34,573 nucleotides of DNA from an uncultured Candidatus Saccharibacteria bacterium (GTDB lineage Bacteria > Patescibacteriota > Minisyncoccia > Phycocordibacterales > UBA5272), in NCBI GenBank assembly GCA_964391935.1, contig CAYMOA010000001.1:7860-42432 (forward strand). The letters run 5' to 3'. Of the stretch, positions 1,167 to 16,045 are shown in pieces. Numbering within the stretch: position 1 is the stretch's first letter; every line of letters begins with the position of its first letter. Under the pieces are notes generated by a model that saw only the letters and a program-made list of their open reading frames with translations, did no database searches and had not been told where the DNA came from. Made by a program: the position numbers and the translations under genes.

Positions 1167-1448
1167 TATTGTGAGAATATGGGTAGGTAAAGTTACCAAA
1201 TTTATGCTATACTATATATAGTTCTTTGAAAATCAAAGATTTGTAGTCCGTGCAAATAATTCGGACCATTTATATCTCCTTATTAGGTAGGCAACTTGGG
1301 AAATCTGCGAGAAGCCATATGATATAAATGACTAACTTAAAACGGTTGGGAGATTTCGCTTAATGTGTCGCATTGAGCCAAACCTCTTTACCGTTTTTTG
1401 TTTTCTAAAAAACTCAAACGGCACGGAGGATAATTAAGAAAATAAAAT

Positions 1449-2336
1449 ATGATATATACAAATAAAATTAAAAAAGCAATTAAGTTTGCAATTGAAACTC
1501 ACGAGATAAACCAAAAGCAAAAGAGAAAAGGAAAAGATATTGCCTATATTACTCATCCTTTCACTGTTGGTTTAATACTAGCAAAAGCAGGTGCAGATGA
1601 AAATGTTGTGGTTGCAGGTATCCTTCACGATACAATTGAAGATAGTATAAAAGAAAAGAAGGTAAATAAAGAACAAATTCAAGAACTTTTCGGCGAAGAA
1701 GTTGCTGAAATAGTAGGAAATGTTACGGAAGAAAACAAAGAAATGTCTTGGGAGGATAGAAAGAAAGAAGCCAGAGAACATCTTAAGACTATGCCATTAA
1801 ATTCACTTTTAGTTAAGACTGCTGATGTTATCAGTAACACGAATGAAATTTTAGAAGATTTTAGTGATGTTGGATTTGAAGTTTTTGATAGATTTAATGC
1901 TTCTAAATTAAATGTTCTTTATCACTACATATTAACAATAAAAATAATTCGTGAAAGATGGCAGGATAATCCTTTTAGAAGTGACTTGGGAAAAATAAAC
2001 ATAGAACTACTTCGTTTGGAAGCATTGCTCCGAGGTTCTATTGCTTATACTGAGTGGAACATTTATTTTATTGAATATGAAATGCAGACCGAATATCCAT
2101 TCTCACCATCAAGAGAAAAAATAGAAAAACTATGTGGTGATTTTCATATCATAGTAAATCAATATGAAAAAGATTTTAGTATAAGTAATTTTCTATCAGA
2201 ATCTAGAATAATAGTAAATTTGTTCAGAGAATTGATTTCACAGATAGAAGAAAAAGAGGAAGGTGTTGATTTGTTGCTAAAAATGCACATAGTGGATATA
2301 AGTTATTCACTCAAGCAAATTACAGATGAAAGTTGA
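1449..2336 (+). CDS. HD-domain phosphohydrolase, RelA/SpoT-hydrolase-like, with C-terminal extension
   Basis: The N-terminal roughly 180 aa carry HD motifs (YITHPFTVGLILA...AGILHDTIEDS) typical of (p)ppGpp-hydrolase/HD_4 proteins. The last roughly 110 aa have no motif I recognise. GGAGGA at 1425-1430 is one of the few SD-like sites in the window. Confidence 0.75.
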   Translation: MIYTNKIKKAIKFAIETHEINQKQKRKGKDIAYITHPFTVGLILAKAGADENVVVAGILHDTIEDSIKEKKVNKEQIQELFGEEVAEIVGNVTEENKEMSWEDRKKEAREHLKTMPLNSLLVKTADVISNTNEILEDFSDVGFEVFDRFNASKLNVLYHYILTIKIIRERWQDNPFRSDLGKINIELLRLEALLRGSIAYTEWNIYFIEYEMQTEYPFSPSREKIEKLCGDFHIIVNQYEKDFSISNFLSESRIIVNLFRELISQIEEKEEGVDLLLKMHIVDISYSLKQITDES

Positions 2337-2454
2337 GGTATGTAGATTGTTGTATCATTTTTAAGCATAAATACAGTTCTAACTTCCTCCACGATGGGTA
2401 GCCAAATAAAAATACTACGCATGAATATGTGTGGTATTTTTATTTGCATATTTG

Positions 2455-2560
2455 CAGGGACGAGAAAGACGGAAGAAAAAAGAAATTGCCCTTGTCTTTT
2501 TTCTGAGTCGGGGTCGCGGAAAATTTTCTGCAAGAAAATTTATCTGTGACCGAGTCCCTG
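2455..2560 (+). repeat. structured repeat, copy 1 (outer helix CAGGGAC/GTCCCTG enclosing a 40-nt hairpin at 2512-2551)
   Basis: The hairpin ggtcgcgg-a-aaattttct-gca-agaaaattt-at-ctgtgacc is identical to 14787-14826 except for 2 loop bases. The 5' block gagaaagacggaag resembles gagaaagcaggagc in copy 2. It lies just upstream of the TATAAT (2571-2576) of the TfoX-like gene. Confidence 0.6.
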
Positions 2561-2582
2561 TAGAAAATGATATAATCCCCTT

Positions 2583-2900
2583 ATGGCAACAGCAAAAGAT
2601 TTTACAGAATATATTTTAGATAATACCCATTCACCCAAAATTCGAGTTCGTTCTATGTTTGGTGAGTTTGCACTGTATTATGAAGACAAAGTCGTGGCCC
2701 TGATCTGTGATAACACTTTGTTTGTAAAAATCTCTGAGAATAATAAAAAGTTTTTGGGAGAAAATAAAATTGGTCCAGCATATCCAAAATCAAAGAATTT
2801 TTATATAATTACAGAAGAACAGATTGAAACTCCAAAATTCCTACAAACAATTTTCAAAAATGTTTCGACTTCATTGCCGAAGAAAGAAGCAAGGAAATAA
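2583..2900 (+). CDS. TfoX N-terminal domain protein
   Basis: The 105-aa ORF contains SMFGEFALYYEDKVVALICDNTLFVKI, matching the TfoX_N pattern (MFGG.G.Y..GKMFA.I.D..LY.K). TATAAT at 2571-2576 is 6 nt before the ATG. Confidence 0.7.
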   Translation: MATAKDFTEYILDNTHSPKIRVRSMFGEFALYYEDKVVALICDNTLFVKISENNKKFLGENKIGPAYPKSKNFYIITEEQIETPKFLQTIFKNVSTSLPKKEARK

Positions 2901-2927
2901 ATAAAAAATATGATAACATACTAAATT

Positions 2928-3188
2928 ATGGCACCAATTACATTCACTGAAAAAAGAAATGAGATCTTACGAGCACTTACTGATTTAGGATTTATAATGA
3001 CCTCAGATTCACTTTCGCAAGCAGAATATGTACTAATTGATGGTTTTGTGAATCAACCAATACAAAGTGAATTAAGTGGGGACTTTGTAGTTGGAGGTCC
3101 AACCATACCGCTAGTAATGTTACTACGAACAAGAACGAAAGAAATTGTATACATTCCTTTAAAAGCGCTTATAAACGTAAATATTTAA
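2928..3188 (+). CDS. hypothetical protein
   Basis: 86-aa ORF, tightly spaced after the TfoX-like gene and 4 nt before the next ORF. No recognisable motif. Confidence 0.45.
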   Translation: MAPITFTEKRNEILRALTDLGFIMTSDSLSQAEYVLIDGFVNQPIQSELSGDFVVGGPTIPLVMLLRTRTKEIVYIPLKALINVNI

Positions 3189-3192
3189 ACTT

Positions 3193-3747
3193 ATGACAAC
3201 TACAGATAATCTTATAAGTAAGAAAGGAACAAAAAAAGAAGTAATAAAAGAAAAAGACATGAAAGGTTTTTTTGAGTATCAATCCAAAAGGTATATTGAT
3301 AATGAACTTGCAAAGCTTTTTAGGGACACTACAGAGAAATTCGTAGAGGAAACTGAACTAAAATTAAAAGATATTGAAATTAAGTTTGAGGAAAAAATTG
3401 AGAAAAAAGAAACTAAAACCACAGAGATTTTAGCAGTCTTCATAACACTCTTTACATTTATATCAATAAATATAAGTATTTTTACTAGAGTGCAAGATAT
3501 TTTAACTGCAGCAACACTAATGCTATTGATAACTTTTCTTTGCACTTTTCTACTTTGTCTTTCTTTTTTTATGCTTTCAGATCAGACTAAAGAAAAAAGA
3601 TACCTATCGGGTCTTTTTTCTTTAATTGCACTTTTTTTACTTTTAGGAATTGTAACTTTAGTAAAATTCGGTTTTCTTAAAAATATTGCACTTAACCCAG
3701 CACCTAAAGAGCAAACAGTTAAATCAATAAAAGCAGAATTTAATTAA
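3193..3747 (+). CDS. hypothetical membrane protein (charged coiled N-terminus, about 3 TM helices)
   Basis: 184-aa ORF. The N-terminal 75 aa are K/E-rich. Hydrophobic stretches follow (ILAVFITLFTFISINISIF, LMLLITFLCTFLLCLSFFML, LFSLIALFLLLGIVTLV). Confidence 0.5.
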   Translation: MTTTDNLISKKGTKKEVIKEKDMKGFFEYQSKRYIDNELAKLFRDTTEKFVEETELKLKDIEIKFEEKIEKKETKTTEILAVFITLFTFISINISIFTRVQDILTAATLMLLITFLCTFLLCLSFFMLSDQTKEKRYLSGLFSLIALFLLLGIVTLVKFGFLKNIALNPAPKEQTVKSIKAEFN

Positions 3748-3846
3748 AATAAATAAATTTACAAAATACATGGACCTAACTATGAAATTAGAAAACAAAG
3801 TTGAAAAAGCTAGCAATTTTGGTACATTTTACGGTATAATTACCCC

Positions 3847-3921
3847 GATGCGATAGCCGAGACGGATTACAGGCGCCTGTCCGCAAGACAGGATACGTAG
3901 GTTCAATTCCTACTCGCATCT
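3847..3921 (+). tRNA. tRNA-Cys (anticodon GCA), non-canonical anticodon loop
   Basis: Hand-folded cloverleaf. Acceptor GATGCGA/TCGCATC; D arm GCC-13 nt loop with GG-GGC; anticodon stem CCTGT/ACAGG with loop CCGCAAG; 4-nt variable region; T arm GTAGG-TTCAATT-CCTAC. The discriminator T73 is the CysRS identity base. Position 33 is C rather than U, and C32/G38 could pair. No encoded CCA. TATAAT at 3835-3840 lies 6 nt before G1. Confidence 0.7.
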
Positions 3922-3927
3922 CAAAAT

Positions 3928-4884
3928 ATGAATGCCCAAGAATATATTAAAAGGAGGCTAGATGAATTGAAACCAGAAAAGAAAAATATTTCAAAAGATG
4001 AACTAACTGATTTTGTTTATAAAACAATAATGTCAAAAAAGTTTAGGAAATTTTCCGCGAACCAAGATTTGATGAATCACGTTAGAGAATCAATTAAAAT
4101 AAATATTCAAAATAATCAGCCAATAAACTTTGTGTTCCCCCACGGTGCTTATAAATTATGGAGACTAGAAGAAGCGCCAAACCCAGATTGGGCGGAACTT
4201 TTTACTTCTATGTATTTTACAAAATGGCTCAAACCTATTTGTGAAGTATACGAGCCAGGTGTTTTATTTGAATACTTTGTTGATGATTCGATTCTTATTC
4301 CGATGAATAATTTAACAAATGAAGAAGTAGAATCTTATTTAAATGAGTACGAAAAAGTTCTACATTTTCTTAAAAAATACCAACCAGAAAATTTTAAAAT
4401 GACTATTGTCAAATTTAGCGACGTATACGGAGATATGAATAAATTCAATTCTGTTTTAAATGAAAGCATAGAAAAACTGACCGGAACTAATCCCACTTTT
4501 GCAGAAGAACAACTAAAAATGACAGAGTTGAACGCAAGACCGACAGAAGAACAAAAACAAGATCCAAAATGGAGAGAAAAAATCCGAATAATTCATGATG
4601 CATATATGCCAATTAAAAGAGAACAAGGTTACTACTACAAGCCAGAAAAAATACCTGTATTTTGTCAGAATCTTTCTTCTGGAAAATTTGTTGCTGTTGG
4701 AACTACTAAAACTTCTATTGCAAAATTCTGGGTTGGTGTTGGTGCTCTCCAAAAACGAGGAAATAGTTTTATAGAAACAATTCTTTCTCTTTCACAAATA
4801 GATAAAACATCAGCAGTGTGGGAAGAAGTAAAAATTGATGGTTTAAACGGAAAAAACTTTTCAAAGATTAGAATAATTGAGTAA
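3928..4884 (+). CDS. hypothetical protein (possible remote Dit1/PvcA-like fold)
   Basis: The 318-aa ORF starts 7 nt after the tRNA. The segment PINFVFPHGAYKLW...PNPDWAELF...ICEVYEPGVLFEYFVDDSIL loosely parallels the DIT1_PvcA pattern (FvLPaFPfKS...lPD.aE...I..iYpPG..l.IvSDG). This is motif-level similarity only. Confidence 0.5.
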   Translation: MNAQEYIKRRLDELKPEKKNISKDELTDFVYKTIMSKKFRKFSANQDLMNHVRESIKINIQNNQPINFVFPHGAYKLWRLEEAPNPDWAELFTSMYFTKWLKPICEVYEPGVLFEYFVDDSILIPMNNLTNEEVESYLNEYEKVLHFLKKYQPENFKMTIVKFSDVYGDMNKFNSVLNESIEKLTGTNPTFAEEQLKMTELNARPTEEQKQDPKWREKIRIIHDAYMPIKREQGYYYKPEKIPVFCQNLSSGKFVAVGTTKTSIAKFWVGVGALQKRGNSFIETILSLSQIDKTSAVWEEVKIDGLNGKNFSKIRIIE

Positions 4885-4900
4885 TGCTTTATTATATAGA

Positions 4901-5482
4901 CTAAATCTTCAAATTAGAACTAAAAGCGCGGAGGTGGTTCTCTGAACCTCCTTTTAGATTTTGATAAACATTGATTATTTCTGCGTTACTAGTCTTTGCG
5001 ATTTCCTGATCCAGATCTTTGATATCCATTTCTTCTATTAATACCCCAACTTTCAAAGCTTCTTCTAGAGAAATCATACCTTGAGCTGTCAAATCATCAA
5101 ATAACTTTTTCATTGATGGGTTTGTAAAAGCACCGACTGAATCATCGGTTACCGGGTCAGGGATATTGTACTTATCAAGCAAAACTTTTACTCTACTGGT
5201 GTGAGTCTGTTCACTTCCAGTGATATTAGAAAACACTCGGGCATTCCACTTTTGATGGAGAATCAGGTAAACGTCCCTAGCGAGTTTTTCTTCTTCTCGC
5301 ATACGCACTAGTCCATTTATTTCTTCATTTGATAGTGAGCCAACTTTAGAATTTGCATTTTCTAGATTTTGAGTTACATGATCTGTGAATGTCATATTTT
5401 TATTAGAAGAATAAATAAAGGCAAACAAAAAAAGCAAAACTACTACAGCAACTATTATTAATTTTGTTTTATTATTTTTCAT
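4901..5482 (-). CDS. DUF2202 (ferritin-like) domain protein with N-terminal membrane anchor
   Basis: The likely start is MKNNKTKLIIVAVVVLLFL at 5482; the track start at 5554 would overlap the arsR promoter. REEEKLARDVYLIL...GSEQTHTSRV...EEMDIKDL...GSENHLRAF matches the two-repeat ferritin-like DUF2202 pattern. Confidence 0.7.
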   Translation of the reverse strand: MKNNKTKLIIVAVVVLLFLFAFIYSSNKNMTFTDHVTQNLENANSKVGSLSNEEINGLVRMREEEKLARDVYLILHQKWNARVFSNITGSEQTHTSRVKVLLDKYNIPDPVTDDSVGAFTNPSMKKLFDDLTAQGMISLEEALKVGVLIEEMDIKDLDQEIAKTSNAEIINVYQNLKGGSENHLRAFSSNLKI

Positions 5483-5535
5483 ATCTACACTGTATACTAC
5501 ATTTTTCAAATTAAAAAAATTCAAACCTTTCTGGC

Positions 5536-5564
5536 TTGCATGTAATATTAGCATATGCTAATAT
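5536..5564 (+). promoter_or_regulatory. arsR promoter with embedded perfect 20-bp palindromic operator
   Basis: TTGCAT (5536-5541), 17-nt spacer, TAATAT (5559-5564), then 6 nt to the ATG at 5571. ATATTAGCAT|ATGCTAATAT (5545-5564) is a perfect palindrome that spans the spacer and the -10. Confidence 0.6.
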
Positions 5565-5570
5565 ATTTAC

Positions 5571-5828
5571 ATGAAAAGAAATGGGGACACAAAGTTTGAT
5601 TGCTTCTCCTCAGAAACCCGAGTCAAACTTATCAAATGTTTAGAAAAAGAAAAATGTGTTTCCGATTTACTTGGGCATTGTAACTTGTCACAGTCAGCAC
5701 TTTCTCAACATTTGAAAATCTTGAAAGATGCTGGTTTTATCAAATGTGTCCGTGATGGACAGAGACAAATCTACTCTGTCGCCAACAAAAAAGTCCTCTC
5801 TCTCGCTGAATCCTTGTTAAATCTATAA
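5571..5828 (+). CDS. ArsR/SmtB-family HTH transcriptional regulator
   Basis: 85 aa. FSSETRVKLIKCL...CVSDLLGHCNLSQSALSQHLKILKDAGFIKCVRDGQRQIYS is a typical ArsR winged-helix core. Confidence 0.8.
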   Translation: MKRNGDTKFDCFSSETRVKLIKCLEKEKCVSDLLGHCNLSQSALSQHLKILKDAGFIKCVRDGQRQIYSVANKKVLSLAESLLNL

Positions 5829-5932
5829 TTTTTTAAAAAAGCTTTTCGAAGCGAAGTTTTGTGCCATATCTAACCAAACACAAATACATTCTGACACATC
5901 AATCAGATTACAAAAAATGTTAAAATGTTTAT

Positions 5933-7108
5933 ATGTTAAAAAATAATTATTTATTATCAGGTGCGCTTCTATTTATATTTATCTCACTCTTTTTTCTAAT
6001 TTACTTTTTCCAAGGAACTAAACTTTACTCTAGAGCTGTGATGGAACATGCAGAGAAACTTGTCTCCGAAGACATGCAAATCTCCCCCACCGAATCCGCC
6101 CGTTTCTACGCTTATGTTTCTACCCTTTATTTTGAAATTTTACAAAAAGAAAAAGACCCAGGCAAAGCTATCGTTGCGACCGCACTCCTAATCGACCAAG
6201 TTTTCCCAAACGAGAAAAACAAAACCACGAAATTTTTAACCTCACAAAACCTAGACAGAAGCCTAGAATTAAATGACAAGACAAAAATATTTTTTGAAAA
6301 CTTTTTAGCTGAAGAGAAAAAAGAAAGGGAACATATAAGCGATTACAAAATTATAAAAAACAAAGACAAGTGGTCGGGAGAAAAATTCCTAGGTATTGAG
6401 GTTTTAAATTATAAATCTTTTATTCTAGAAAAAAGTTTGGTTGACCAAGTATCACCTCCACCAAAAGAAAATAGCCCAGAACAAAAAGAAGCCATCACAA
6501 GTTTAATCGAAACAACAAAACATCTGAGCGCGGAGCAGGCGGCTTGGGTTAATTTCTGGAGTGCCATGCACATGACACCGAGCCTGGCTGGAGTTTGGCA
6601 AGATAGACTTTTTACAATTTCTAAAAGTCATTTTCTAAAAGACAGCGAGTACGCTTATGCGCAAATGGTTTTAGCACAAAGCCTACATGACACTTTAAAA
6701 GAAACTTGGAAGGTTAAAGAAAAATACTTAACAAAAAGACCAAGTCTGTATAGTCAAAAAATAACTCTTGCAATGGAAGACCCTCAATACCCATCATATG
6801 TTTCAGAATATTCTTCTGTTGGGAAAGTGGCAAGTGAAATTATTATCAAATTCTTTCCTCACAGAAAAAATATTTTATTAAAAGACCAGGAGACAAGTAG
6901 TGAGATAAGTCAGTGGGCAGGATGTTCTTTTTCTTATGACGAAGAAGCGGGTAAGAAATTGGGAGATTTAATTTTAAAAGAAATAGAATCTAAAAATAAT
7001 TTACAAGCAATCAGAGAAAACTCATTTTTACCAGATTTTCTTTATGCTTTGAAAACCAGAATGAACAACTTCACCTCCGAAGCCCATGTTTATAATTGGG
7101 GTGAATAG
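5933..7108 (+). CDS. PAP2/vanadium-haloperoxidase-like protein, catalytic motifs degenerate
   Basis: Paralog of 27058..28170 (SPTESARFYAYVSTLYFE versus TPPESARFYAIVSTVYYE; TKRPS is shared). It reads PSYVSEYSS where the paralog has PSYTSGHST, and SQWAGCSFSYDE where the paralog has SRLWAGIHFPHDN. N-terminal TM helix. Confidence 0.6.
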   Translation: MLKNNYLLSGALLFIFISLFFLIYFFQGTKLYSRAVMEHAEKLVSEDMQISPTESARFYAYVSTLYFEILQKEKDPGKAIVATALLIDQVFPNEKNKTTKFLTSQNLDRSLELNDKTKIFFENFLAEEKKEREHISDYKIIKNKDKWSGEKFLGIEVLNYKSFILEKSLVDQVSPPPKENSPEQKEAITSLIETTKHLSAEQAAWVNFWSAMHMTPSLAGVWQDRLFTISKSHFLKDSEYAYAQMVLAQSLHDTLKETWKVKEKYLTKRPSLYSQKITLAMEDPQYPSYVSEYSSVGKVASEIIIKFFPHRKNILLKDQETSSEISQWAGCSFSYDEEAGKKLGDLILKEIESKNNLQAIRENSFLPDFLYALKTRMNNFTSEAHVYNWGE

Positions 7109-7117
7109 ATAATATGA

Positions 7118-7150
7118 AACCATAAAAAGTTTGGTCGAATTTTTATGGTT
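7118..7150. terminator. bidirectional hairpin between convergent genes
   Basis: aaccataaaaa (7118-7128) pairs with tttttatggtt (7140-7150). The 11-bp stem has A/T runs on both sides and overlaps the stop of the minus-strand gene. Confidence 0.5.
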
Positions 7151-7943
7151 TTATAACTGTATCCTCCCACTCGAATTTCTGACCTTTAAAATATGAATCT
7201 ATAAATGGTACAAGTAAACTTGCAAGTGGTAACGCAAAAAAGAAAGCAGGTTTAAAACTTGAAAAGATATAAAGTAGAATTGTAATAAAAACTAAAGATA
7301 AAGAAAAAATAAGTCTGCCTATTGTTGTGTCAGGTGTAGTTTTTGGATCGGTAATCATAAAGAAAGAGAAAAGGATTATCGGCACACTCAACAAATGGTG
7401 AAAGATATTTCCACTAAAAAGGTTTACGTATGAAAAAAGCAAAACGGTAAAAGAATATGGAATTAAAAAGAATAGGGCTACGTCGGTCCTCTTTACACTA
7501 TAACTGATCAATAAACCACAAGCTAAAACAAACAAAGCCAACATGCTCGAGTCAAAACCCCATTGATACGGTGTCACCGCAGCAAGCCCTGGAAAAGCCA
7601 AAATAGTCATAACTATACCAAAGTTGTTTGGATTAAAAATATGTTTATTGTTGTATCGAACAATGAATTTACTTGCCACAGTTACAAAAGTACAAAATAT
7701 AGCAGCTTGTAAACTCTGAGTGCTCATCAAAATGATAATCGGCATACCGGCAACGAAAGAACTTTTCCAGTTATATGGTATCTTTGCGAACCAAGAAAAG
7801 TAAACTTGGAACAGTTGCATAAAAACGAAAATAGTTACGATATACCAAAGTTGTATTTGTGGAAGTTTTAAGACAAAAGTCGCCATCAATAAAACCACAA
7901 CTAGAAATGCCATTTGAAAATATATCTGATTAATGTTTTTCAT
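7143..7943 (-). CDS. polytopic membrane protein, RnfD/NqrB-like
   Basis: 266 aa with about 8 hydrophobic helices. HIFNPNNFGIV and FFMITDPKTTP resemble the conserved RnfD/NqrB segments (FNP..., FFMATDP.T.P). Confidence 0.55.
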   Translation of the reverse strand: MKNINQIYFQMAFLVVVLLMATFVLKLPQIQLWYIVTIFVFMQLFQVYFSWFAKIPYNWKSSFVAGMPIIILMSTQSLQAAIFCTFVTVASKFIVRYNNKHIFNPNNFGIVMTILAFPGLAAVTPYQWGFDSSMLALFVLACGLLISYSVKRTDVALFFLIPYSFTVLLFSYVNLFSGNIFHHLLSVPIILFSFFMITDPKTTPDTTIGRLIFSLSLVFITILLYIFSSFKPAFFFALPLASLLVPFIDSYFKGQKFEWEDTVIKP

Positions 7944-7971
7944 ATTTTAATTATAGCACTAAGATACAATA

Positions 7972-7992
7972 CCCCTGCCAGGGGGTCAGGGT
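7972..7992 (+). repeat. hairpin-plus-G-tail element, copy A (short)
   Basis: cccctgccagggg plus tail gtcagggt. It is intergenic, directly after the stop (7996) of the upstream minus-strand gene. Confidence 0.45.
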
Positions 7993-7995
7993 AAA

Positions 7996-8676
7996 CTACT
8001 GAACAATAAAATATTGTAAATCTTTGGCTCTGTCTAATTCTTCTATGTTACCTTTCCATTCCCTATAAACAATATCCTCTTCTTTAATTTCTTGTGTATT
8101 TGTATATTTTATTTTATCTCCCAATTCTTCTAGATCACTCACATAAAATTTTTGGGTTTCATTATCTTTGTAAAAAACTTTAATTTTCTGATTTTCTAAA
8201 ATCAAAGAATAAATATTTAGGTGAGAATTGCTTTTATATGTGTCCACACTGTTTTCTTTTATATTAAATTTATAAATCACATCGTAAAAATCTGAGACAC
8301 TTCCCTCTTTAAAGCGAGACTCTAAAAAGTATAGGTGTTCAGGTGTGGTCAAAGTCAACATCTGGGCGCAATGCTCTGGGTCCCAAAAAACATTTTCGGA
8401 AACTTTTTCAAATTTGTTTTTTTCAGAAAAATTTATTTCTTCTAGTTTTTGATTAGTTGCAATATACCAAAATCTTCCAATCTCTTTTTCTTCTTTGTCT
8501 TTTTTTTCTTCTTTAAATCTATACAAATATGCTTTCCCATCTTTTGACAAAACCTCACCTTTTTCTTTTGTAAAACTTTGTCTAGTATCACCACTCATCA
8601 AGTCAGTCTTAAAATAAAAACTCAATCCTATTAAAATGAAAACACAAAATATTACAAACATTCTTTTATTGTTCAT
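7996..8676 (-). CDS. hypothetical membrane-anchored protein
   Basis: The preferred start is the ATG at 8676 (MNNKRMFVIFCVFILIGLSFYF), because TGTTATAAT (-10 at 8689-8684) lies 7 nt upstream and the track start at 8721 sits inside a terminator stem. No known domain. Confidence 0.5.
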   Translation of the reverse strand: MNNKRMFVIFCVFILIGLSFYFKTDLMSGDTRQSFTKEKGEVLSKDGKAYLYRFKEEKKDKEEKEIGRFWYIATNQKLEEINFSEKNKFEKVSENVFWDPEHCAQMLTLTTPEHLYFLESRFKEGSVSDFYDVIYKFNIKENSVDTYKSNSHLNIYSLILENQKIKVFYKDNETQKFYVSDLEELGDKIKYTNTQEIKEEDIVYREWKGNIEELDRAKDLQYFIVQ

Positions 8677-8695
8677 TCCGGTAATTATAACACTC

Positions 8696-8864
8696 AAACA
8701 AAGAAATAGACCGAGATGCAACGTGCATCTCGGTCCTGAGATTGCAGGTGTCCAGCCTTAACTCTGCTGGACAAGACCTCCTGAGAGGAGGCGAAGTGGT
8801 AGCCCTTGCTCACTCCACTTTAGGTTGACGGTCGAGTCCTGTGTCGGACACCCGTATGGCCTTG
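8696..8864 (-). ncRNA. GC-rich structured RNA candidate (unknown class), sRNA or cis-regulatory leader
   Basis: Minus-strand promoter TTGCTT (8898-8893), 16-nt spacer, TAGAAT (8876-8871). P1 is GGUGUCC/GGACACC (8852-8846 with 8753-8747). Inner helices are GGAC/GUCC, AAGUGG/CCACUU and CCUCC/GGAGG. The 12-bp terminator hairpin (8735-8709) is followed by UAUUUCUUUGUUU. My hand count gives 61 G+C in the 106-nt core, against much lower GC in the flanks. Confidence 0.5.
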
Positions 8865-8907
8865 TAGAATATTCTATCTTAAATATTTAAAAAAGCAAGA
8901 CATCGGC

Positions 8908-8936
8908 TTGCATAATATATTAGTATCTGCTAATAT
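8908..8936 (+). promoter_or_regulatory. second copy of the arsR-type promoter/operator, driving the glutaredoxin-like gene
   Basis: cttgcat + aatatattagtatctgctaatatatt aligns without gaps to 5535-5567, with 5 mismatches in the 26 nt after cttgcat. Elements are TTGCAT 8908-8913, imperfect palindrome ATATTAGTATCTGCTAATAT 8917-8936 and TAATAT 8931-8936. The ATG at 8945 is 8 nt downstream. Confidence 0.55.
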
Positions 8937-8944
8937 ATTATTAT

Positions 8945-9190
8945 ATGACAAATAACAATAAAAAAGTAATAATTTATTCGACACCTACTTGCCCGTATTG
9001 TGTTTATGCTAAACAATATTTTAAGGACAAAAAAGTCCCTTTTGAAGATGTTGATTTATTTATACACAGAGACAGAATAGAAGAAGCAAGATCAAAAAGT
9101 GGACAAAATGGTGTGCCAGTGATAGACATCAATGGTCAGATAGTTCTTGGTTTTCAGCCTGAAGTTTTTGAAAAACTTCTGAATCAATAA
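8945..9190 (+). CDS. glutaredoxin/NrdH-like thiol-disulfide oxidoreductase
   Basis: 81 aa. VIIYSTPTCPYCVYAKQYF...GVPVIDINGQIVLGF is the glutaredoxin CPYC fold signature. Confidence 0.8.
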   Translation: MTNNNKKVIIYSTPTCPYCVYAKQYFKDKKVPFEDVDLFIHRDRIEEARSKSGQNGVPVIDINGQIVLGFQPEVFEKLLNQ

Positions 9191-9676
9191 TTACTCAAAC
9201 TCGATTGGTATTTCCAAAGCATCGTCATTTTCTGGGAGACCAGATGGGTTATCTTTTTTGAGAATTATCGCACCTTTTTTAGAATAAACATTTGACTCTA
9301 GTTCATAGGAAATATTAGCTTCGAATGGAACGAACTCGTTTGTCATCCAGTCGCCTTTGGCTTGGGCCACACCAGTGCCAATTATTTTCCCATCCCAGTC
9401 AACAATAAAAATCGGGAATGATGCTTCGAAAAACCAGCTACCTCGGGCACTACCTGTAACTTTTACCGGGCTTTTTATTTTCTGATTTGGTTTCGGACTA
9501 TCTAAAATAATTTTATCACCTTTATCTTCTATGATATTTTTGATATTCTCTTGATTTATAGGATTATTATCTTTTTCTTTTGCAGGATTGATCCCTATAG
9601 AAAAAATCACACTCAAAATAGCAAGAACAAAAAATACTAGTGCAACTATAATAATTTTTTTATTTATATTTTTCAT
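9191..9676 (-). CDS. Gmad2 immunoglobulin-like domain protein, membrane anchored
   Basis: An N-terminal TM helix is followed by SPVKVTGSARGSWFFEASFPIFIVDWDGKIIG...GDWMTNEFVPFEANI, matching the Gmad2 pattern. Confidence 0.65.
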   Translation of the reverse strand: MKNINKKIIIVALVFFVLAILSVIFSIGINPAKEKDNNPINQENIKNIIEDKGDKIILDSPKPNQKIKSPVKVTGSARGSWFFEASFPIFIVDWDGKIIGTGVAQAKGDWMTNEFVPFEANISYELESNVYSKKGAIILKKDNPSGLPENDDALEIPIEFE

Positions 9677-10077
9677 TTATTTTCTTCTTCCTCTTCCTTT
9701 TCTTTTTTATACTCTTTTAAATGTTTCCAAAAAGTTGACACTGTGTCTTTTTCTTTAACCGCGGTTTTTAAGAAAAAGTCGCGCACTGTAGAGTAGAGAA
9801 CGTCAGTAGCGTCAGAAATAAATTTTAAAAATAAAACTATAAAATGTAGTAGCCAGTGGAAAATAGCCAACATAGACTTGGTAAAGTTTCCTTTTGTCGA
9901 GTCATAAAAAGCAAAAACTTTCTCTTTTGCTTCGTCGATATTATTATTTACATCTGCATCCAAAAAAGCACTGGTAACTATTTTTTCAATCTTTTTTCTA
10001 TTAATAAAATATCTAATAGAAAGATAAAAAGCCGCAACCAAGAATGGAATTAGAAATAAATAAAAACTATTTAACAT
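9673..10077 (-). CDS. hypothetical membrane protein
   Basis: 134-aa ORF with a 4-nt overlap onto the downstream gene. It has two hydrophobic helices and an acidic C-terminus. Confidence 0.45.
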   Translation of the reverse strand: MLNSFYLFLIPFLVAAFYLSIRYFINRKKIEKIVTSAFLDADVNNNIDEAKEKVFAFYDSTKGNFTKSMLAIFHWLLHFIVLFLKFISDATDVLYSTVRDFFLKTAVKEKDTVSTFWKHLKEYKKEKEEEEENK

Positions 10078-10080
10078 ATT

Positions 10081-10665
10081 TTATGAGTAGCGAACGAATT
10101 TTGCGATAGATGTGTTTTCACCAAATTTTTGGATAGCACCAGAAAGTAGGTCGGCAATAGTTTTAGAGTCGTCTTTCAAAAACTTTTGGTTCATGAGTAC
10201 TGAGCCGGCTAAAAACTCCGCCCACTTACCTTCTGCAATCTTTGCTTGGATATCTGCTGGCTTTCCTGTTTTTGCAGCTTCTTCCATGAAGGCTTCTAAG
10301 TATTTGGCTTTTACAGATTCATCGATATCAGATTCTTTTACGAACTCTGGGTTCATACCTGCGATGTGAACTGCAATATCAGAGGCAAGAGCGATGAACT
10401 CTGGGTTTGCTGCTACGAAGTCAGTCTCGCAAACCAGTTGCACCATAGCGCCCACTTTCCCACCTTGGTGGATATAAGCTTGAGAACACACAGCTCCAAA
10501 TGCTCGGTCACCTTTCTTTGACGCATCAGCAGACGCTTTCTTTCTCAAAGCGATTTTTGCTTTTTCCATGTCACCGTTACTTTCTTCTAGTGCTTTTTTA
10601 CATTGCATTATAGAAACTCCAGTCTCATCTCTTAATTTTTTTACTTCATCCATTGTTACTGCCAT
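10081..10665 (-). CDS. tsf: translation elongation factor Ts (short form)
   Basis: The UBA-like N-terminus VKKLRDETGVSIMQCKKALEESNGDMEKAKIALRKK and the core CETDFVA motif are present. It lies downstream of rpsB, as in most bacteria. Confidence 0.9.
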   Translation of the reverse strand: MAVTMDEVKKLRDETGVSIMQCKKALEESNGDMEKAKIALRKKASADASKKGDRAFGAVCSQAYIHQGGKVGAMVQLVCETDFVAANPEFIALASDIAVHIAGMNPEFVKESDIDESVKAKYLEAFMEEAAKTGKPADIQAKIAEGKWAEFLAGSVLMNQKFLKDDSKTIADLLSGAIQKFGENTSIAKFVRYS

Positions 10666-10710
10666 AAAATTATATTTTTGTTTTATCTGTTAATCTAGTC
10701 GCACTTTACT

Positions 10711-10736
10711 CCTCCTTGTAAAGGAGGCTGGGAGGA
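10711..10736 (+). repeat. hairpin-plus-G-tail element, copy B (divergent)
   Basis: cctcctt-gta-aaggagg followed by the tail ctgggagga. It sits in the rpsB-tsf spacer, immediately after the rpsB stop. Confidence 0.45.
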
Positions 10737-10742
10737 TTTGTC

Positions 10743-11423
10743 CTATTCTGCTGATTCTATCTTTTCGCCGATGTAGTCTAACACAGTTTGGATAGACAGA
10801 GAAGATGAATCATTAATTACTATCGGATAGTTTACTTCTTTTATATTACAGTCAGTATTACAAAGAGCAACTACAGGGATACGCATATACTTTGCCTCAG
10901 CGAGAGCGATGGCTTCGTGTTTAGAGTCAACAAGTAGAATTGCTTGTGGGAGTCCTGCAACTTGGGCCATACCTCCAAAGTTTTTTGTCATACGCGCGAT
11001 ATCACGGTCGATCAAAACATTTTCTTTTTTTGTATAAACAGCAAACTCACCTGCTTCTTTTTTGGTTAAAAGTTCTGCTAATTTTTCAACTCTTTTTTTA
11101 ATTTCACCAAAGTTTGTTAGAGTCCCACCGATGAATCTTTCTCCTGCATATGGTAGAGACAACTTCATACCAGCACTTGTAACTTGGGCGCGAGCTTCTG
11201 GTTTTGTACCAATGATTAAAAATTGTTTTTTATCTGCAACTATTTTTTGTAAGAATTCTACAGCCTTCTCAACTTGAGCAGCTGTTTTTTCTAAATCAAT
11301 AATATCTTTACCTCCTTTTGTAGCGTAAAGAGAGTTCTTTACTGATGGGTGACGGCGAGTTTTAGAGTAGCCAAAATGCGCACCTGTTTCTGTTAATTTT
11401 TTAACTAAGTCTTCTTTTGTCAT
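10743..11423 (-). CDS. rpsB: 30S ribosomal protein S2
   Basis: LTETGAHFGYSKTRRHPS...ILLVDSKHEAIALAEAKYMRIPVVALCNTDC is the canonical S2 sequence pattern. Confidence 0.92.
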   Translation of the reverse strand: MTKEDLVKKLTETGAHFGYSKTRRHPSVKNSLYATKGGKDIIDLEKTAAQVEKAVEFLQKIVADKKQFLIIGTKPEARAQVTSAGMKLSLPYAGERFIGGTLTNFGEIKKRVEKLAELLTKKEAGEFAVYTKKENVLIDRDIARMTKNFGGMAQVAGLPQAILLVDSKHEAIALAEAKYMRIPVVALCNTDCNIKEVNYPIVINDSSSLSIQTVLDYIGEKIESAE

Positions 11424-11449
11424 ATATTTTATTTTCTATTTTAATTTTA

Positions 11450-11749
11450 TTAATTATTATCCCAAGTATCAGAAGGCTCTGTAATTTTTGTTGAACTGGT
11501 TAAAAATAAACTGTCAGGATAATTATCATTTGTGAATCTGGATGTATCTATATTTTCTTGGTATCCACCTTCTTTTGCTGCCTCCCGTTCAATCTTTGCA
11601 GCGATAATCATTTCTTGCTCTCTAAGGTATTGTTCATCTTCTGGTAATAGTCCATTGTATCCTTGAGCGCACCTAGCCAAACGACGTATTTGAGCTTTGA
11701 AATTTATTTCGTCTTCATCACCATCATAATCACCATATTTTCTAGCCAT
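11450..11749 (-). CDS. hypothetical acidic protein
   Basis: 99-aa ORF behind a roughly 140-nt leader. No recognisable motif. Confidence 0.45.
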   Translation of the reverse strand: MARKYGDYDGDEDEINFKAQIRRLARCAQGYNGLLPEDEQYLREQEMIIAAKIEREAAKEGGYQENIDTSRFTNDNYPDSLFLTSSTKITEPSDTWDNN

Positions 11750-11897
11750 AAAAATACTTGTTATTTTTTTTTAATATTCAAAAAGTTTTTACTACAACAC
11801 CTGAATATTTCCTACAAAAGTTTTACTCTTGTCTGTCACGAAAATTTCGGCTCGGGTGAGCGTCCCCGATGCTGTAATTGCTTTTGAACTGGTCAGT

Positions 11898-11926
11898 ATT
11901 CTAACACAGAAGTAATTTTTTTTCAA
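11898..11926 (-). promoter_or_regulatory. sigma70-type promoter for the 99-aa gene
   Basis: On the minus strand: TTGAAA (11926-11921), 17-nt spacer, TGT-TAGAAT (-10 at 11903-11898). It abuts hairpin element copy C. Confidence 0.45.
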
Positions 11927-11932
11927 GAACAG

Positions 11933-11965
11933 AAAACACCCCTACCCCTCTTTCGAAAAGAGGGG
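11933..11965 (-). repeat. hairpin-plus-G-tail element, copy C
   Basis: aaaacacccctacccctctttcgaaaagagggg. Its reverse complement, cccctcttttcgaaagaggggtaggggtgtttt, is nearly identical to copy D. C and D therefore form inverted terminal repeats. Confidence 0.7.
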
Positions 11966-12211
11966 TTTTCGAGTTCTAACATATTTTTCTAGTTCTAATT
12001 TAACTTGTAAAACATTGCTCTCAACAGTTTCATTTGTAAATCTTAATGTTTGGATACCATATTTGATAAAAAATAAGTTATCTCTTTCACATCTTTTTCT
12101 TTTTGTTTATTGTGTATTTCTCCATCTATTTCAATTATCAATTTTAATTTGCTGCAGTAAACGTTTGGTTGTTCCTTAAATCTCTCGCTCTTGCTACCAA
12201 ATTTGAGTCAT
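11942..12211 (-). pseudogene. decayed DUF559 / Vsr-like endonuclease-domain gene
   Basis: Minus-strand translation in three different frames gives MTQIW*, FKEQPNVYCSKLKLIIEIDGEIHNKQKEKDVKEITYFLS and GIQTLRFTNETVESNVLQVKLELEKYVRTRKPLFSKEG*. These match DUF559 blocks (LW..LR, FRRQ, DFYC..LKL.IE.DG..H, G..VLRF.N.EV). An in-frame stop, frameshifts and a deletion of the IG.YI.DF block are present. Confidence 0.6.
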
Positions 12212-12239
12212 ATCTAATAAAAATAGTTTCTTGAGATGT

Positions 12240-12274
12240 CCCCCTCTTTTTGAAAGAGGGGTTAGGGGTGTTTT
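12240..12274 (+). repeat. hairpin-plus-G-tail element, copy D
   Basis: ccccctctttttgaaagaggggttaggggtgtttt. A partial tail duplicate (ggtgttttca) follows at 12289-12300. Confidence 0.7.
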
Positions 12275-12372
12275 CAGTGCCGGGAGATTTGGTGTTTTCA
12301 ATATCTGTCATAATCTAATGCTTTTTTCTGTCTTTTGTGTTATTATATCAAACATAAAAATTTAAATAATAA

Positions 12373-12924
12373 ATGCATCCAAAAAATCATAGAACTATAA
12401 TGAACGAAAATATCCGCGCACACGAACTTCGTGTCCTCGGAGAAAACAATGAAAACCTAGGCGTGATGGACAGAAATGCTGCCCTGAAAATAGCCAAAGA
12501 AAAAGGAGTGGACCTCATTTTAACAGCAGAAAACGCAGTGCCACCAGTGGCAAAGATTATCGACTACGGTAAATTCGCCTATTTAGAAAATAAAAAAGAT
12601 AATCAAAAAAGAAATAATGACAATACTACGGAGACCAAAGTATTGCGTTTAACTGTGGGTATCGGTGAGGGAGATCTAACAAACAAAGCTAAACAAGCGA
12701 GTGAGTGGTTACATGAAGGTCACCGAGTAAAAATAGAATTGAAATTAAAAGGCCGCGCTAATGCTATCGAACATGATTTCTTAAAAGAAAGATTGCAGAG
12801 AATTTTGATATTGCTTACTGAGAATTATAAAACTGCAGAGCCGATCAAAAAAATCCCCAATGGTATGACAATGGTTATCGAAAAAGCTAAAGGCAAAATG
12901 GGCGAAGCCGCAGAGAATTTGTAA
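12373..12924 (+). CDS. infC: translation initiation factor IF-3
   Basis: INENIRAHELRVLGENNENLGVM...AKEKGVDLILTAENAVPPVAKIIDYGKFAY is the IF-3 N-domain/linker pattern, and the C-domain is present. The exact start is uncertain: ATG at 12373 or a downstream codon. Confidence 0.9.
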   Translation: MHPKNHRTIMNENIRAHELRVLGENNENLGVMDRNAALKIAKEKGVDLILTAENAVPPVAKIIDYGKFAYLENKKDNQKRNNDNTTETKVLRLTVGIGEGDLTNKAKQASEWLHEGHRVKIELKLKGRANAIEHDFLKERLQRILILLTENYKTAEPIKKIPNGMTMVIEKAKGKMGEAAENL

Positions 12925-12956
12925 TTTGTTTTTAGGAGAGTTATAATACTTGCCCT

Positions 12957-13895
12957 ATGATTTCAAAAACTGAAAACAAAATTATTGATTTTTCTTTATT
13001 ATCACTTACTAATCTTTCAAATATTATCCCTACTAGAATCCTTAAAAAACATCTAAACGCAGACGGTAAGGTATATTTCGAACTAGTTTCCTGCGTATTT
13101 AAACCCGACCAGTGGACAAAAGCATTCTTACGGGGTCTTTACCAGTTTGGTGAGCAAGGAGGGTTTACAGACAAAACAGTTGTCGAGCTAGGGAGCGGTT
13201 GTGCTATAAACTTAATTTTAGTGAACAATATTTATAACCCTAAATATATTTACGGCTCAGATATTCATCCAGATGTTTATGAAAATGCATTAAAAAATGT
13301 TTCTTTAGTTTTACCAGAAGAAAAAAGAAATAATATAGAAATAATTTCTGGTGGACATAACCTAGACTCTTGGATGAAGGATGATTTTAAGGTTGATGTC
13401 ATTTTCGGTTGTCTCCCTCAAGTAATTGCCCCATCTCATATTGCTAACAATAACTTTACCGGTGAGAAAAACGAGGCTTCTTCTCACTATTACATCCCAG
13501 AAGAGTACCCATTAGCAAGAACATCTACCCACACTTTAGGACTAGCATTAAATGAACATGCTTTAAGAAAATTAAAAAGCAGATTAAATCCGTGTGGAAA
13601 AATAGTTTTGAACTTGGGTGGTAGGACAGGAAAAGAGAATTTATTAGAAATGTTCACTGCTAGTGGTTATACACCAGAAATATTACATGAGGAATTTATT
13701 GAGCAACACAGTGGTACAAGTATAGAAACTTTTGTAGAGATTGAAAAAAGATCTTCTGCCGATCATACTTTTGAATTCTTCAATGAGTTTGGTCAACAGA
13801 TATCTGCAGCACAGGCTGACATCGATAGAAAAGGTGGTAAAAAAATATACCATAAAATATATGTGATCGCTGGTACAGTTGCCGACAATGTTTAG
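12957..13895 (+). CDS. class I SAM-dependent methyltransferase, MMT/MmtN-like (methionine S-methyltransferase family candidate)
   Basis: SAM motif I is VVELGSGCAINLIL, followed by SDIHPD. FGCLPQV, LNLGGRTGK and VEIEKRSSADHTFEFF parallel the plant MMT N-terminal domain as I remember it (ELGCGNG, GCIPQI, NMGGRPG, VEIEKNSPHRFEFF). TATAAT at 12942-12947 lies 9 nt before the ATG. Confidence 0.7.
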   Translation: MISKTENKIIDFSLLSLTNLSNIIPTRILKKHLNADGKVYFELVSCVFKPDQWTKAFLRGLYQFGEQGGFTDKTVVELGSGCAINLILVNNIYNPKYIYGSDIHPDVYENALKNVSLVLPEEKRNNIEIISGGHNLDSWMKDDFKVDVIFGCLPQVIAPSHIANNNFTGEKNEASSHYYIPEEYPLARTSTHTLGLALNEHALRKLKSRLNPCGKIVLNLGGRTGKENLLEMFTASGYTPEILHEEFIEQHSGTSIETFVEIEKRSSADHTFEFFNEFGQQISAAQADIDRKGGKKIYHKIYVIAGTVADNV

Positions 13896-13942
13896 TTGCA
13901 AATTTGTCAATACTCTGTTATAATTGCACAATCATTTTCTTT

Positions 13943-14164
13943 ATGAAAACAAAAAAATCATTATTAAAAAGACTGAAAATCACCAAGAACGGCAAAATCC
14001 TTGGTCGTGCCAAAGGTATCGGTCACTTCAACGCTCGTAAAAGACGTGTTGACCAACTTGCCCAAAGAAAACCTGTTCCTTTTTCTATGACTAACAAAGA
14101 AAAGAGACGTTTCCTACCAGGTCTTGTAAAGATTGCCAAAGCAAAAGCTTATATAGCTAAATAA
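13943..14164 (+). CDS. rpmI: 50S ribosomal protein L35
   Basis: MKTKKSLLKRLKITKNGKILGRAKGIGHFNARKR matches the L35 pattern. The track start at 13904 adds an implausible hydrophobic extension. Confidence 0.85.
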   Translation: MKTKKSLLKRLKITKNGKILGRAKGIGHFNARKRRVDQLAQRKPVPFSMTNKEKRRFLPGLVKIAKAKAYIAK

Positions 14165-14173
14165 TATAATTTT

Positions 14174-14515
14174 ATGACAAGAGTTAAAAGAGGAAAAATT
14201 TCCCTAAAAAGACGAAATAATGTTCTAAAAGATGCTAAAGGTTTTAGACTACAACGTTCTAAAAAAGAGCGCTCTGCAAAAGTAGCCCTTCGTAAAGCCG
14301 GAGTTCATGCTTTCTCTCACAGAAAAGACAAGAAGAATGACATGAGAAAACTTTGGAATGTAAAGATCAATGCATCATTACGAGAAGCGGGTACAACATA
14401 TAGTAAATTCATCAACTTGATGAAAACTAAAAATGTAGTGCTTGATAGAAAAGTTCTTGCGGAAATCGCTCAGAAACATCCTAAAGTTTTTGCAAACCTA
14501 GTAAAAGCAATTTAG
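14174..14515 (+). CDS. rplT: 50S ribosomal protein L20
   Basis: MTRVKRGKISLKRRNNVLKDAKGF...LWNVKINASLRE...LDRKVLAEIA is canonical L20. Confidence 0.92.
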   Translation: MTRVKRGKISLKRRNNVLKDAKGFRLQRSKKERSAKVALRKAGVHAFSHRKDKKNDMRKLWNVKINASLREAGTTYSKFINLMKTKNVVLDRKVLAEIAQKHPKVFANLVKAI

Positions 14516-14521
14516 TAAAAC

Positions 14522-14552
14522 AAAAAACTCTAGAATATTTCTAGAGTTTTTT
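14522..14552 (+). terminator. rho-independent terminator of the infC-rplT operon
   Basis: An A-run precedes the stem ctctagaa (14528-14535), loop tat and stem ttctagag (14539-14546). A TTTTTT run follows. Confidence 0.8.
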
Positions 14553-14595
14553 GTTTATATATGTTAAAATGATTAAACTTGTTTTAAACAAGACT

Positions 14596-14668
14596 GCTCT
14601 CATAGCTCAGTTGGTAGAGCAACTCCCTCTTAAGGAGATGGTCGTAGGTTCGATCCCTACTGAGAGCA
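14596..14668 (+). tRNA. tRNA-Lys (anticodon CUU)
   Basis: Cloverleaf: GCTCTCA/TGAGAGC acceptor, GCTC-AGTTGGTA-GAGC D arm, anticodon loop CTCTTAA, GTAGG-TTCGATC-CCTAC T arm, discriminator A. No encoded CCA. Confidence 0.9.
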
Positions 14669-14720
14669 CAAAAAATAAAATAAGCAATTTGCACTTTACA
14701 GTGCTTGTTTGATTTTATTT

Positions 14721-14835
14721 ACAGTAGGGTGAGAAAGCAGGAGCGAAATTCTGTTGTGAACGAAGTGTCTCAGAACGGGTGAAGCTGGTCGCGGAAAATT
14801 TTCTAGAAGAAAATTTATCTGTGACCTATCCCTGT
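14721..14835 (+). repeat. structured repeat, copy 2 (40-nt hairpin at 14787-14826)
   Basis: It has the same architecture as 2455-2560. The outer pairing is acag..ggg / ccctgt, the 5' block is gagaaagcaggagc, and the hairpin ggtcgcggaaaattttctagaagaaaatttatctgtgacc follows. It lies between tRNA-Lys and the TATAAT (14887-14892) of the next gene. Confidence 0.6.
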
Positions 14836-14904
14836 TCAGAAAATTTCTTAATTAAAAAAAATACAAAAGTATTAAATGAATTATGTTATAATAATACTAG
14901 AAAT

Positions 14905-15993: not shown

Positions 15994-16010
15994 GACCGTC
16001 TAAATTTTAC

Positions 16011-16038: not shown

Positions 16039-16045
16039 AATACTA

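Follow-up and report, generated by a model that had tools for sequence, protein, structure and literature searches.

The stretch of DNA analysed here (34,573 nt, referred to as the window) is part of contig CAYMOA010000001.1, positions 7,860 to 42,432, from an uncultured Candidatus Saccharibacteria bacterium. The source assembly, labelled G000 in the following, comprises 0.83 Mb in 80 contigs, has a G+C content of 33.6% and is 72% complete. The window harbors two copies, A and B, of a folded non-coding element of approximately 110-150 nt that forms a three-way junction. A 40-nt hairpin that a previous sequence-only reading had flagged as a repeat is helix P3 of this element. Relatives of the element are located behind tRNA, tmRNA and topA genes of other Patescibacteria, where they are bracketed by copies of the end of the host gene, and they apparently constitute an undescribed family of very small, protein-less, folded insertion elements. 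The explanation favored here, to which a probability of about 0.55 is assigned, is that each member represents a miniature, non-autonomous and non-coding integrative element of the Campbell type, with the folded single strand as its functional part. This interpretation is based on the direct repeat that extends from one defined phosphate to the end of the gene, on the intact second end of topA and on the native terminator found behind it. A selfish element also fits because of the patchy occurrence, the subfamilies, the tandem units and the remnants that were observed.

The 40-nt hairpin was located at positions 2512-2551 (copy A) and 14787-14826 (copy B), both on the plus strand. The two sequences differ solely in two bases of the loop (GCA versus AGA), and the two matches in the window compare with 0.00 expected from 100 shuffles. 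The outer pairing described for copy A, CAGGGAC (2455-2461) with GTCCCTG (2554-2560), is present in the sequence, as is the purine block GAGAAAG preceding both hairpins (2462-2468 and 14731-14737). Folded as RNA, copy A reaches -48.6 kcal/mol (z = -6.7), a value attained by none of 200 shuffled sequences, and copy B reaches -39.7 kcal/mol (z = -3.7). The sequence-only reading had further stated that the stems are conserved while the flanks diverge. This holds for P3, but not for helices P1 and P2, which differ strongly between the two copies. Comparison of the two sequences suggests that an identical P3 next to unrelated P2 arms is best explained by a short gene-conversion tract. A partial match of one hairpin arm at positions 4045-4062, located inside an open reading frame (ORF), was attributed to chance and not counted as a third copy.

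Along the sense strand, the layout of a locus comprises the host gene including its 3' end (copy 1), a terminator-like spacer, a strand designated a', the three-way-junction core, a second copy of the gene 3' end (copy 2) and the apparent native flank. The a' strand is an inverted copy of the approximately 20 nt located 3' of the insertion point and forms the 5' strand of the closing helix P1, whereas copy 2 starts directly at the 3' foot of P3. Junction J1/2 consists of GAAAG, at times with a tandem G-A pair before it. The base of P2 is 3 bp long (G-N-C/G-N'-C, with covariation between N and N') and is topped by the internal loop G-S-A/G-A and a hairpin that varies among members. J2/3 reads GG, and the base of P3, GGUCGCG/UGUGACC, includes two G-U pairs; in the family-level set this base can switch wholesale to GGCUGCG/UGUAGCC. 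The distal stem of P3 is A/U-rich, variable in length and covarying. In total, about 35 conserved nucleotides are clustered around the junction. Many members harbor an additional hairpin, P0, with a CUGC loop, which divides a' exactly between its acceptor and T-stem parts. The terminator-like hairpin is positioned between the tRNA and a' and forms one long palindrome with the tRNA end at some loci.

The pairing of these helices was evaluated in an alignment of 83 distinct sequences (A4), which was fitted to the model and in which the search pattern had fixed columns 139-148 and 192-198; 92.6% of the cells are paired, and 27 of the 36 pairs are changed on both sides. None of 500 shuffles reached these values, and slid partners were paired in 38-49%. 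This supports the earlier assumption that the repeat is a functional folded structure rather than the mere result of a recent duplication. With the two invariant G-U pairs excluded, 77 G-U pairs were counted versus 36 A-C pairs. Due to this excess of G-U pairs, the tRNA-sense strand is regarded as the folding strand. In a short subfamily (L045, L066, L074, L084 and L121), the long a' is missing and the tRNA copy is preceded by an additional GTGTACTCAC-like block. The spacers of this subfamily resemble each other between tRNA-Arg and tRNA-Glu genes of different genomes.

R1, a covariance model derived from three sequences, was matched over its full length in 47 of 96 genomes from the same family as the source organism, with up to seven copies each. 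A degenerate pattern retrieved more than 120 stretches from a species-representative genome collection, 85 of which also matched the covariance model. The pattern matches are almost all labelled as Patescibacteria lineages, and the few in G+C-rich genomes look like chance. With a second model (R2) four copies were found in the source genome (A, B and one each on contigs C4 and C28). The same model detected six copies at E <= 1.6e-5 and a seventh at 0.007 in G001, a genome of the same genus. In a phylum-wide sample 8 of 151 genomes were positive with 1-6 copies each, a count in which the strict filters of Infernal and a bias of the model toward the GGUCGCG type may hide divergent members. The distribution is patchy, and multi-copy wherever the element is present.

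No family in Rfam 15 matches the element. Only two tRNAs in the window reach the gathering score, the best scores for copy A are 23 bits compared to gathering scores of at least 50, and 27 loci with other members gave only tRNA, tmRNA, RNase P RNA and chance matches at E <= 0.05. 5S rRNA, which shares the three-way topology, was rejected, as a canonical 5S gene is located elsewhere in all five genomes tested, including contig C43 of the source genome. Hammerhead and other ribozymes, riboswitches and the Drum and skipping-rope families were dismissed because they gave no Rfam match. No description of the element was found in the literature searches, although a motif list in the supplement of some paper could already hold it.

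The placement of the copies is linked to genes for tRNA and tmRNA. A tRNA or tmRNA gene on the same strand is found no more than 120 nt upstream of 57 of the 85 copies, and at least 17 amino-acid specificities are represented. Among 20 loci of the family, a tRNA precedes almost every copy at a distance of 43-71 nt on the same strand, one copy is located behind tmRNA and one belongs to a cluster with RNase P RNA. Within clusters, elements are interleaved with tRNAs, and tandem units occur. At locus L176 (G019:C1:275900-279100, positions 860-1980) three tRNAs and four elements, two of them in tandem, share one strand within 1.1 kb. The next protein gene lies on either strand. The 88 nearest downstream ORFs contain no Pfam family with more than three occurrences, and the 25 families listed for them do not include an integrase.

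The 3' tail of the element is a copy of the upstream tRNA from T-loop position 57 to its end. In a test set of 80 unique elements with a tRNA or tmRNA not more than 300 nt upstream, 23 tails match the cognate tRNA at 18 of 18 positions and 33 match at 16 or more, whereas a score of 16 was not attained by any of 800 non-cognate pairings. In every case listed, C56 is the last base before the repeat (..ggttc|GA.. for the tRNA, ..tgacc|GA.. for the element). The repeat spans 14-22 nt and stops 0-3 nt past the discriminator base; its two copies are 112-215 nt apart. In the copies of G090, a' is a perfect Watson-Crick complement even at the positions of the U2-G71 and U6-G67 pairs of tRNA-Lys. Because a' is Watson-Crick where tRNA-Lys has U-G, it is derived from the 3' strand of the tRNA and not from the 5' half. 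This also rules out an origin by duplication of a whole tRNA with subsequent replacement of its body. The possibility that a' is a normal part of the sequence flanking tRNAs was examined in tRNAs without an element, 1 of 104 of which had its last 14 nt repeated in inverted orientation no more than 150 nt away, a rough figure for which elements were called by a loose regular expression. As in integrative elements of tRNA genes, the 3' part of the tRNA is directly repeated on both sides of the insert. An integrase was detected neither in the inserts of 112-215 bp nor among the families listed for the downstream ORFs.

A second conserved core, containing GGAAGGUUUSGGAAAACCGUGGGUUUCC, was observed in the 130 nt that follow the element on the minus strand of L124 and upstream of the element in L130 (524-655). 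It is likewise bracketed by inverted and direct copies of the tRNA 3' end and has no Rfam match. This kind of bracket may serve several families of elements as a general format for landing.

Some copies are located behind topA instead of a tRNA gene. In one genus, the element follows topA in 8 of 30 loci, with one weak match (16.6 bits), and in exactly these eight loci the C-terminal motif KTIPERC..HNPHK is encoded again, in frame, behind the element. The repeat comprises approximately 90-110 nt, and copies 1 and 2 share 67-98% nucleotide identity at the eight loci. Copy 2 is in frame through the stop codon in the seven loci listed. At several empty sites topA is followed by a GAGCG-type terminator hairpin, and this hairpin lies behind copy 2 in at least two of the filled loci (L177 and L180). 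Judged from this arrangement, the inserted DNA would consist of copy 1, the spacer, a' and the core, and so would have been placed before the native end of topA. At topA, a' is the complement of coding sequence, as in L019 and L027. The closing helix thus takes up any sequence that happens to be located 3' of the insertion point, and mimicry of a tRNA is not constant. Two loci (L191 and L192) have a decayed second topA copy with a partial or absent core.

An integrative element of this kind would bring a replacement gene end with it, and the host gene would work with the element in or out. The fold of the sense strand, either as RNA or as single-stranded DNA, would set the recombination junction at the base of the three-way junction, where the helix of a' and the tail (a) may imitate the target. 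The enzyme that moves the element would act in trans. The match of a' to new targets could arise by extension of an imperfect hairpin through template switching, a step that we infer ourselves. Signs of turnover were found at several loci. Species differ in the presence of the element at the topA locus, and nearly identical cores occur at different tRNAs within G090 (five or six copies), G012 (L008 and L168) and G087 (L006 and L173). L168 equals L008 across the spacer, a' and the core, has its own tail and is preceded only by a tRNA remnant; the comparison of the two indicates gene conversion or replacement.

Several observations weigh against the integrative-element interpretation. Gene conversion could yield homogeneous cores without transposition, a tree based on 57 nt of topA cannot resolve which copy is native, and no integrase is encoded beside the elements in the ORF set described above. 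The transposase domain Y1_Tnp is not associated with the family (3 of 8 positive versus 68 of 143 other genomes), and the zinc-ribbon domain of TnpB (PF07282) and the DEDD domain of IS110 (PF01548) were each found in none of five positive genomes that are 90-99% complete. Phage-borne copies were sought in IMG/VR contigs, where ten pattern matches were obtained, only one of which matches the model, and weakly (19.8 bits, 65% G+C). No empty site or circle was seen in assembled contigs (four DNA runs, 1400-16400); the two contig joints that touch the element were not usable, as their sides are approximately 21 nt long or originate from the tRNA-Lys and element of another organism. A classical integrase model leaves unexplained how a' and copy 1 match many different tRNAs around near-identical cores. 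Furthermore, the conservation of unpaired purines and of G-U pairs is a trait more typical of RNAs with a function than of recombination sites in DNA, and P3 is 100% identical in G000 and G001 despite drifted tails, which hints at a function in place.

Reverse transcriptases were also considered. RVT_1 is present in 7 of 10 positive genomes and 1 of 5 negative genomes, and is absent from G012 and G090, which harbor 6-7 copies. A retron non-coding RNA (ncRNA) was rejected because no reverse transcriptase gene lies beside the copies. Reverse transcriptase genes were noted on contig C2 of the source genome (58009-58629, minus strand) and in G199 (C17:4834-5448, minus strand), the latter 3.4 kb from two elements.

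The role proposed by the sequence-only reading, a 5' leader RNA or a DNA operator controlling a TfoX-like gene and a second gene, is now considered highly improbable. A TATAAT hexamer (2571-2576 for copy A, 14887-14892 for copy B) and a plus-strand gene do follow both window copies, and the gene after copy A (2583-2900) carries a TfoX_N domain. No full sigma-70 promoter was called near either copy by a consensus scan. The start codon of the TfoX_N gene is positioned 6 nt past an extended -10 box of the TGnTATAAT type (TGATATAAT, within 2568-2585), which places the element upstream of the transcript and not in its leader; the sequence suggests that this mRNA is probably leaderless and independent of the element. 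In G001, an identical 40-mer follows tRNA-Lys and faces a convergent gene. Only one of the four copies in the source genome precedes a TfoX_N gene, and TfoX_N is absent from the families listed for the downstream ORFs. These families are unrelated to each other, in contrast to the competence or DNA-uptake regulon that had been suggested. The observed placement comes close to the condition that the sequence-only reading had named as refuting it, a repeat distributed irrespective of gene starts. Copies sit behind tRNA or tmRNA genes, and the next protein gene is in either orientation. As the downstream ORFs of the 88 loci have no family in common and occur on either strand, both the leader and the operator function were removed from consideration, and the element is not a regulator of the TfoX_N gene.

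Two types of RNA-based explanation remain under consideration, because the matching of targets and the conserved purines and G-U pairs are otherwise unexplained. The element might be a stable small RNA that serves the host, is co-transcribed with or read through from tRNA genes and is released by tRNA-processing enzymes via its acceptor/T-arm-like closing helix, while the junction binds a common protein or ligand. Such a function, though unlikely, would agree with the strong conservation of the structure including the junction purines and G-U pairs, and with the placement within same-strand clusters of tRNA, tmRNA and RNase P RNA genes. The core is retained where the repeat has decayed (G000 and G001), and P0 is located where the D and anticodon arms leave a tRNA. 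However, a host function of this kind is difficult to reconcile with the patchy distribution and with a closing helix that consists of coding sequence at topA. The frame of the second topA copy is kept in all eight loci, which is needless for a small RNA gene. In addition, a terminator-like hairpin usually separates the tRNA from the element, and the consensus scan detected no promoter at the two window copies. An intron-like RNA, in which the core acts as a self-cleaving and ligating ribozyme or as a substrate of RNA ligase, is a more doubtful proposal. In this case a' would dock on either copy of the gene end, the RNA would be cut at C|R, and the transcript could lose everything from copy 1 to the core, with the gene body joined to copy 2. 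The boundary at one exact phosphate, after C56 in the tRNA and at the 3' foot of P3, the ability of a' to pair with copy 1 or copy 2, and the conserved nucleotides around the junction are consistent with this model, and both topA ends are in frame and under protein-level constraint. Evidence to the contrary is provided by the lack of any match to a ribozyme or intron family of Rfam 15 and by the boundaries themselves, since the exon does not end in U nor the insert in G, and the hallmarks of group I introns are missing. The supposed intron would also contain a terminator-like spacer, and the differences between genomes at the DNA level would still require a DNA step.

It is also conceivable that the element is a mobile unit without a protein of its own, in which the RNA carries out the essential steps. 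The core of approximately 75 nt would then be a ribozyme or the guide scaffold of some enzyme; with the 20-nt a' it would recognize the sequence just 3' of ..C|RAWYCC.., and it would cut and join at that phosphate. This is put forward tentatively, as one of the less probable readings. If it were true, the insert could enter and leave tRNA, tmRNA and topA genes or their transcripts and always leave a working gene end behind, and the family would represent a new class of RNA-directed insertion/excision elements in very small bacterial genomes. There is little reason to assume a derivative of a known single-strand or RNA-guided transposon, i.e. a palindrome-associated element of the IS200/IS605 type, a REPIN (Y1), or a guide RNA of TnpB, IscB or IS110. 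Such systems have in common with the family that the hairpins are small, non-coding and specific to one strand and contain G-T mismatches, that insertion takes place immediately 3' of a short motif (..TTC|) and that approximately 20 nt match the target as in a guide. However, the corresponding enzymes show the distribution reported above, none of their genes adjoins any copy, and the known systems yield no direct repeat of a gene end.

Some integrative elements enter the 3' part of tRNA or tmRNA genes, including the T-loop sublocation, and restore the gene with a copy that they carry themselves. The present elements resemble these in the direct repeat from the T-loop to the 3' end, the use of tmRNA, the intact host gene and the displaced native end behind the insert. 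They differ in the size of the insert, only about 110-240 bp without an integrase or any other gene, and in their inverted target copy, their conserved three-way junction with G-U pairs and the use of the protein gene topA as a target. Like miniature inverted-repeat transposable elements (MITEs), REPINs and palindrome-associated elements, they are small, non-coding, multi-copy, hairpin-rich and patchy, with subfamilies within one genome. In contrast to MITEs and REPINs, their terminal helix is derived from the target and thus different at every locus, without a conserved terminal inverted repeat; the repeated target sequence (14-22 nt at tRNAs, about 90-110 nt at topA) is not a short duplication of fixed length, and there is no Y1 association. 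Integron attC sites and attP(+) of the CTX phage share the conservation of structure over sequence, the strand-specific fold and a stem that imitates a double-stranded target. Those sites are bulged hairpins, whereas the family has a three-way junction with conserved unpaired purines and targets the 3' end of a gene, and no integron integrase context was seen around the copies.

Group I introns in bacterial tRNA genes are similar in being structured non-coding intervening sequences with a strand that pairs with the exon. They differ in their position (anticodon loop instead of T-loop) and in their junctions, as ..TTC|GA and ..GACC|GA have neither the exon-end U nor the terminal G. Moreover, no match to RF00028 was obtained, and a further copy of the 3' exon is part of the insert itself. 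The bridge RNA of IS110 and the omega RNA of TnpB also combine a structured scaffold with a target match of about 20 nt, which in the elements is sometimes split by hairpin P0. The partner enzymes were found in none of the five positive genomes mentioned, and the target-matching strand of the elements is paired in cis. Finally, the closing helix with acceptor/T-arm sequence and the tRNA-like end are reminiscent of tRNA-like ncRNAs such as the skipping-rope family and mascRNA. The elements differ from them in having no Rfam match and in a core that is closed by coding sequence at topA, so that the tRNA mimicry appears to be a side effect of where the elements insert.

The genomes of Patescibacteria are tiny, and few mobile elements have been recognized in them. 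In these genomes, gene-less inserts of a few hundred base pairs occupy several tRNA genes at a time harmlessly, each bringing a spare gene end. Their design unites a target copy, an inverted target copy and a conserved junction whose end coincides exactly with the point of insertion. If the elements are mobile, candidates for the mover include a recombinase of the host, an enzyme of a phage and the RNA itself, and the target-matching strand of approximately 20 nt would make the system programmable in principle. There are also consequences for the annotation of these genomes, in which the tails will be mistaken for fragments of tRNAs and the duplicated ends of topA for pseudogenes.

The features of the two window copies are compiled in Table 1. 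Copy A shows the full family layout, consisting of a tRNA remnant, a spacer hairpin, a', the core and a tail. Neither ARAGORN nor Rfam called a tRNA at positions 2337-2400, and the spacer hairpin was missed by the consensus terminator scan. In G001, the orthologous element is preceded by a tRNA-Gln(UUG) whose 3' end is similar to the tail of copy A, and no tRNA matching this tail was found in the 72%-complete source assembly; the tRNA partner of copy A seems to have decayed. Both copies are old and probably immobile, with tails that have drifted from the tRNA sequence.

Table 1. Coordinates of element A, element B and associated features in the window.
Feature	Position	Strand	Basis and remarks
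Possible decayed tRNA-Gln(UUG) remnant	2337..2400	+	Low confidence; aligns weakly with the intact tRNA before the orthologous G001 element, common GTTC..TCC..GGGTAGC
Copy A, spacer R: A-tract, hairpin, T-tract, terminator-like	2403..2446	+	Hairpin visible in sequence; layout as in spacers of other members
Copy A, P1 5' strand (a'), complement of tail	2455..2461	+	Fold, family structure
Copy A, junction J1/2 (GA + GAAAG), family-conserved	2462..2468	+	Alignments
Copy A, P2 arm: P2a GAC/GUC, internal loop GGA/GA, variable hairpin	2468..2509	+	Fold; N:N' covariation (columns 31/138)
Copy A, junction J2/3 (GG)	2510..2511	+	Invariant in pattern-selected set (columns 140-141)
Copy A, P3: base GGUCGCG/UGUGACC with two conserved G-U pairs, distal stem A/U-rich	2512..2551	+	40-mer matches, fold, family statistics
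Copy A, tail (a): putative relic tRNA 3' end from T-loop position 57, forms P1 3' strand	2552..2560	+	Resembles G001 tRNA-Gln 3' end; family rule
tRNA-Lys(CTT), host gene of copy B	14596..14669	+	tRNA calls
Copy B, weak terminator-like hairpin in spacer	14691..14704	+	Terminator scan
Copy B, P1 5' strand and GAGAAAG junction	14721..14737	+	Sequence, alignment
Copy B, P2 arm: variant P2a AGC/GCU, loop UUGUGAACGAAGUG	14736..14786	+	Fold, alignment
Copy B, P3 hairpin	14787..14826	+	40-mer match
Copy B, tail: diverged tRNA-Lys 3' end, 11/18 identical	14827..14847	+	Cognate comparison; end of R2 match

Further observations concern neighboring genes and other structured RNAs. The tRNA-Cys of the window (3847-3922) has an enlarged D-loop region, scores 52.6 bits and has no element after it. 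The RNase P RNA at locus L033 (693-1052) reaches 86.5 bits compared to an Rfam gathering score of 100, and standard annotation would miss it in this lineage. The ORF directly after copy B (14905-15993, plus strand) encodes 362 amino acids and belongs to no Pfam or NCBIfam family, its best match being RNA 2'-phosphotransferase with an E value of 0.04. It is followed on the minus strand by an ORF with a PemK/MazF-like toxin domain (16092-16484), for which the small upstream ORF at 16490-16825 may encode the antitoxin.

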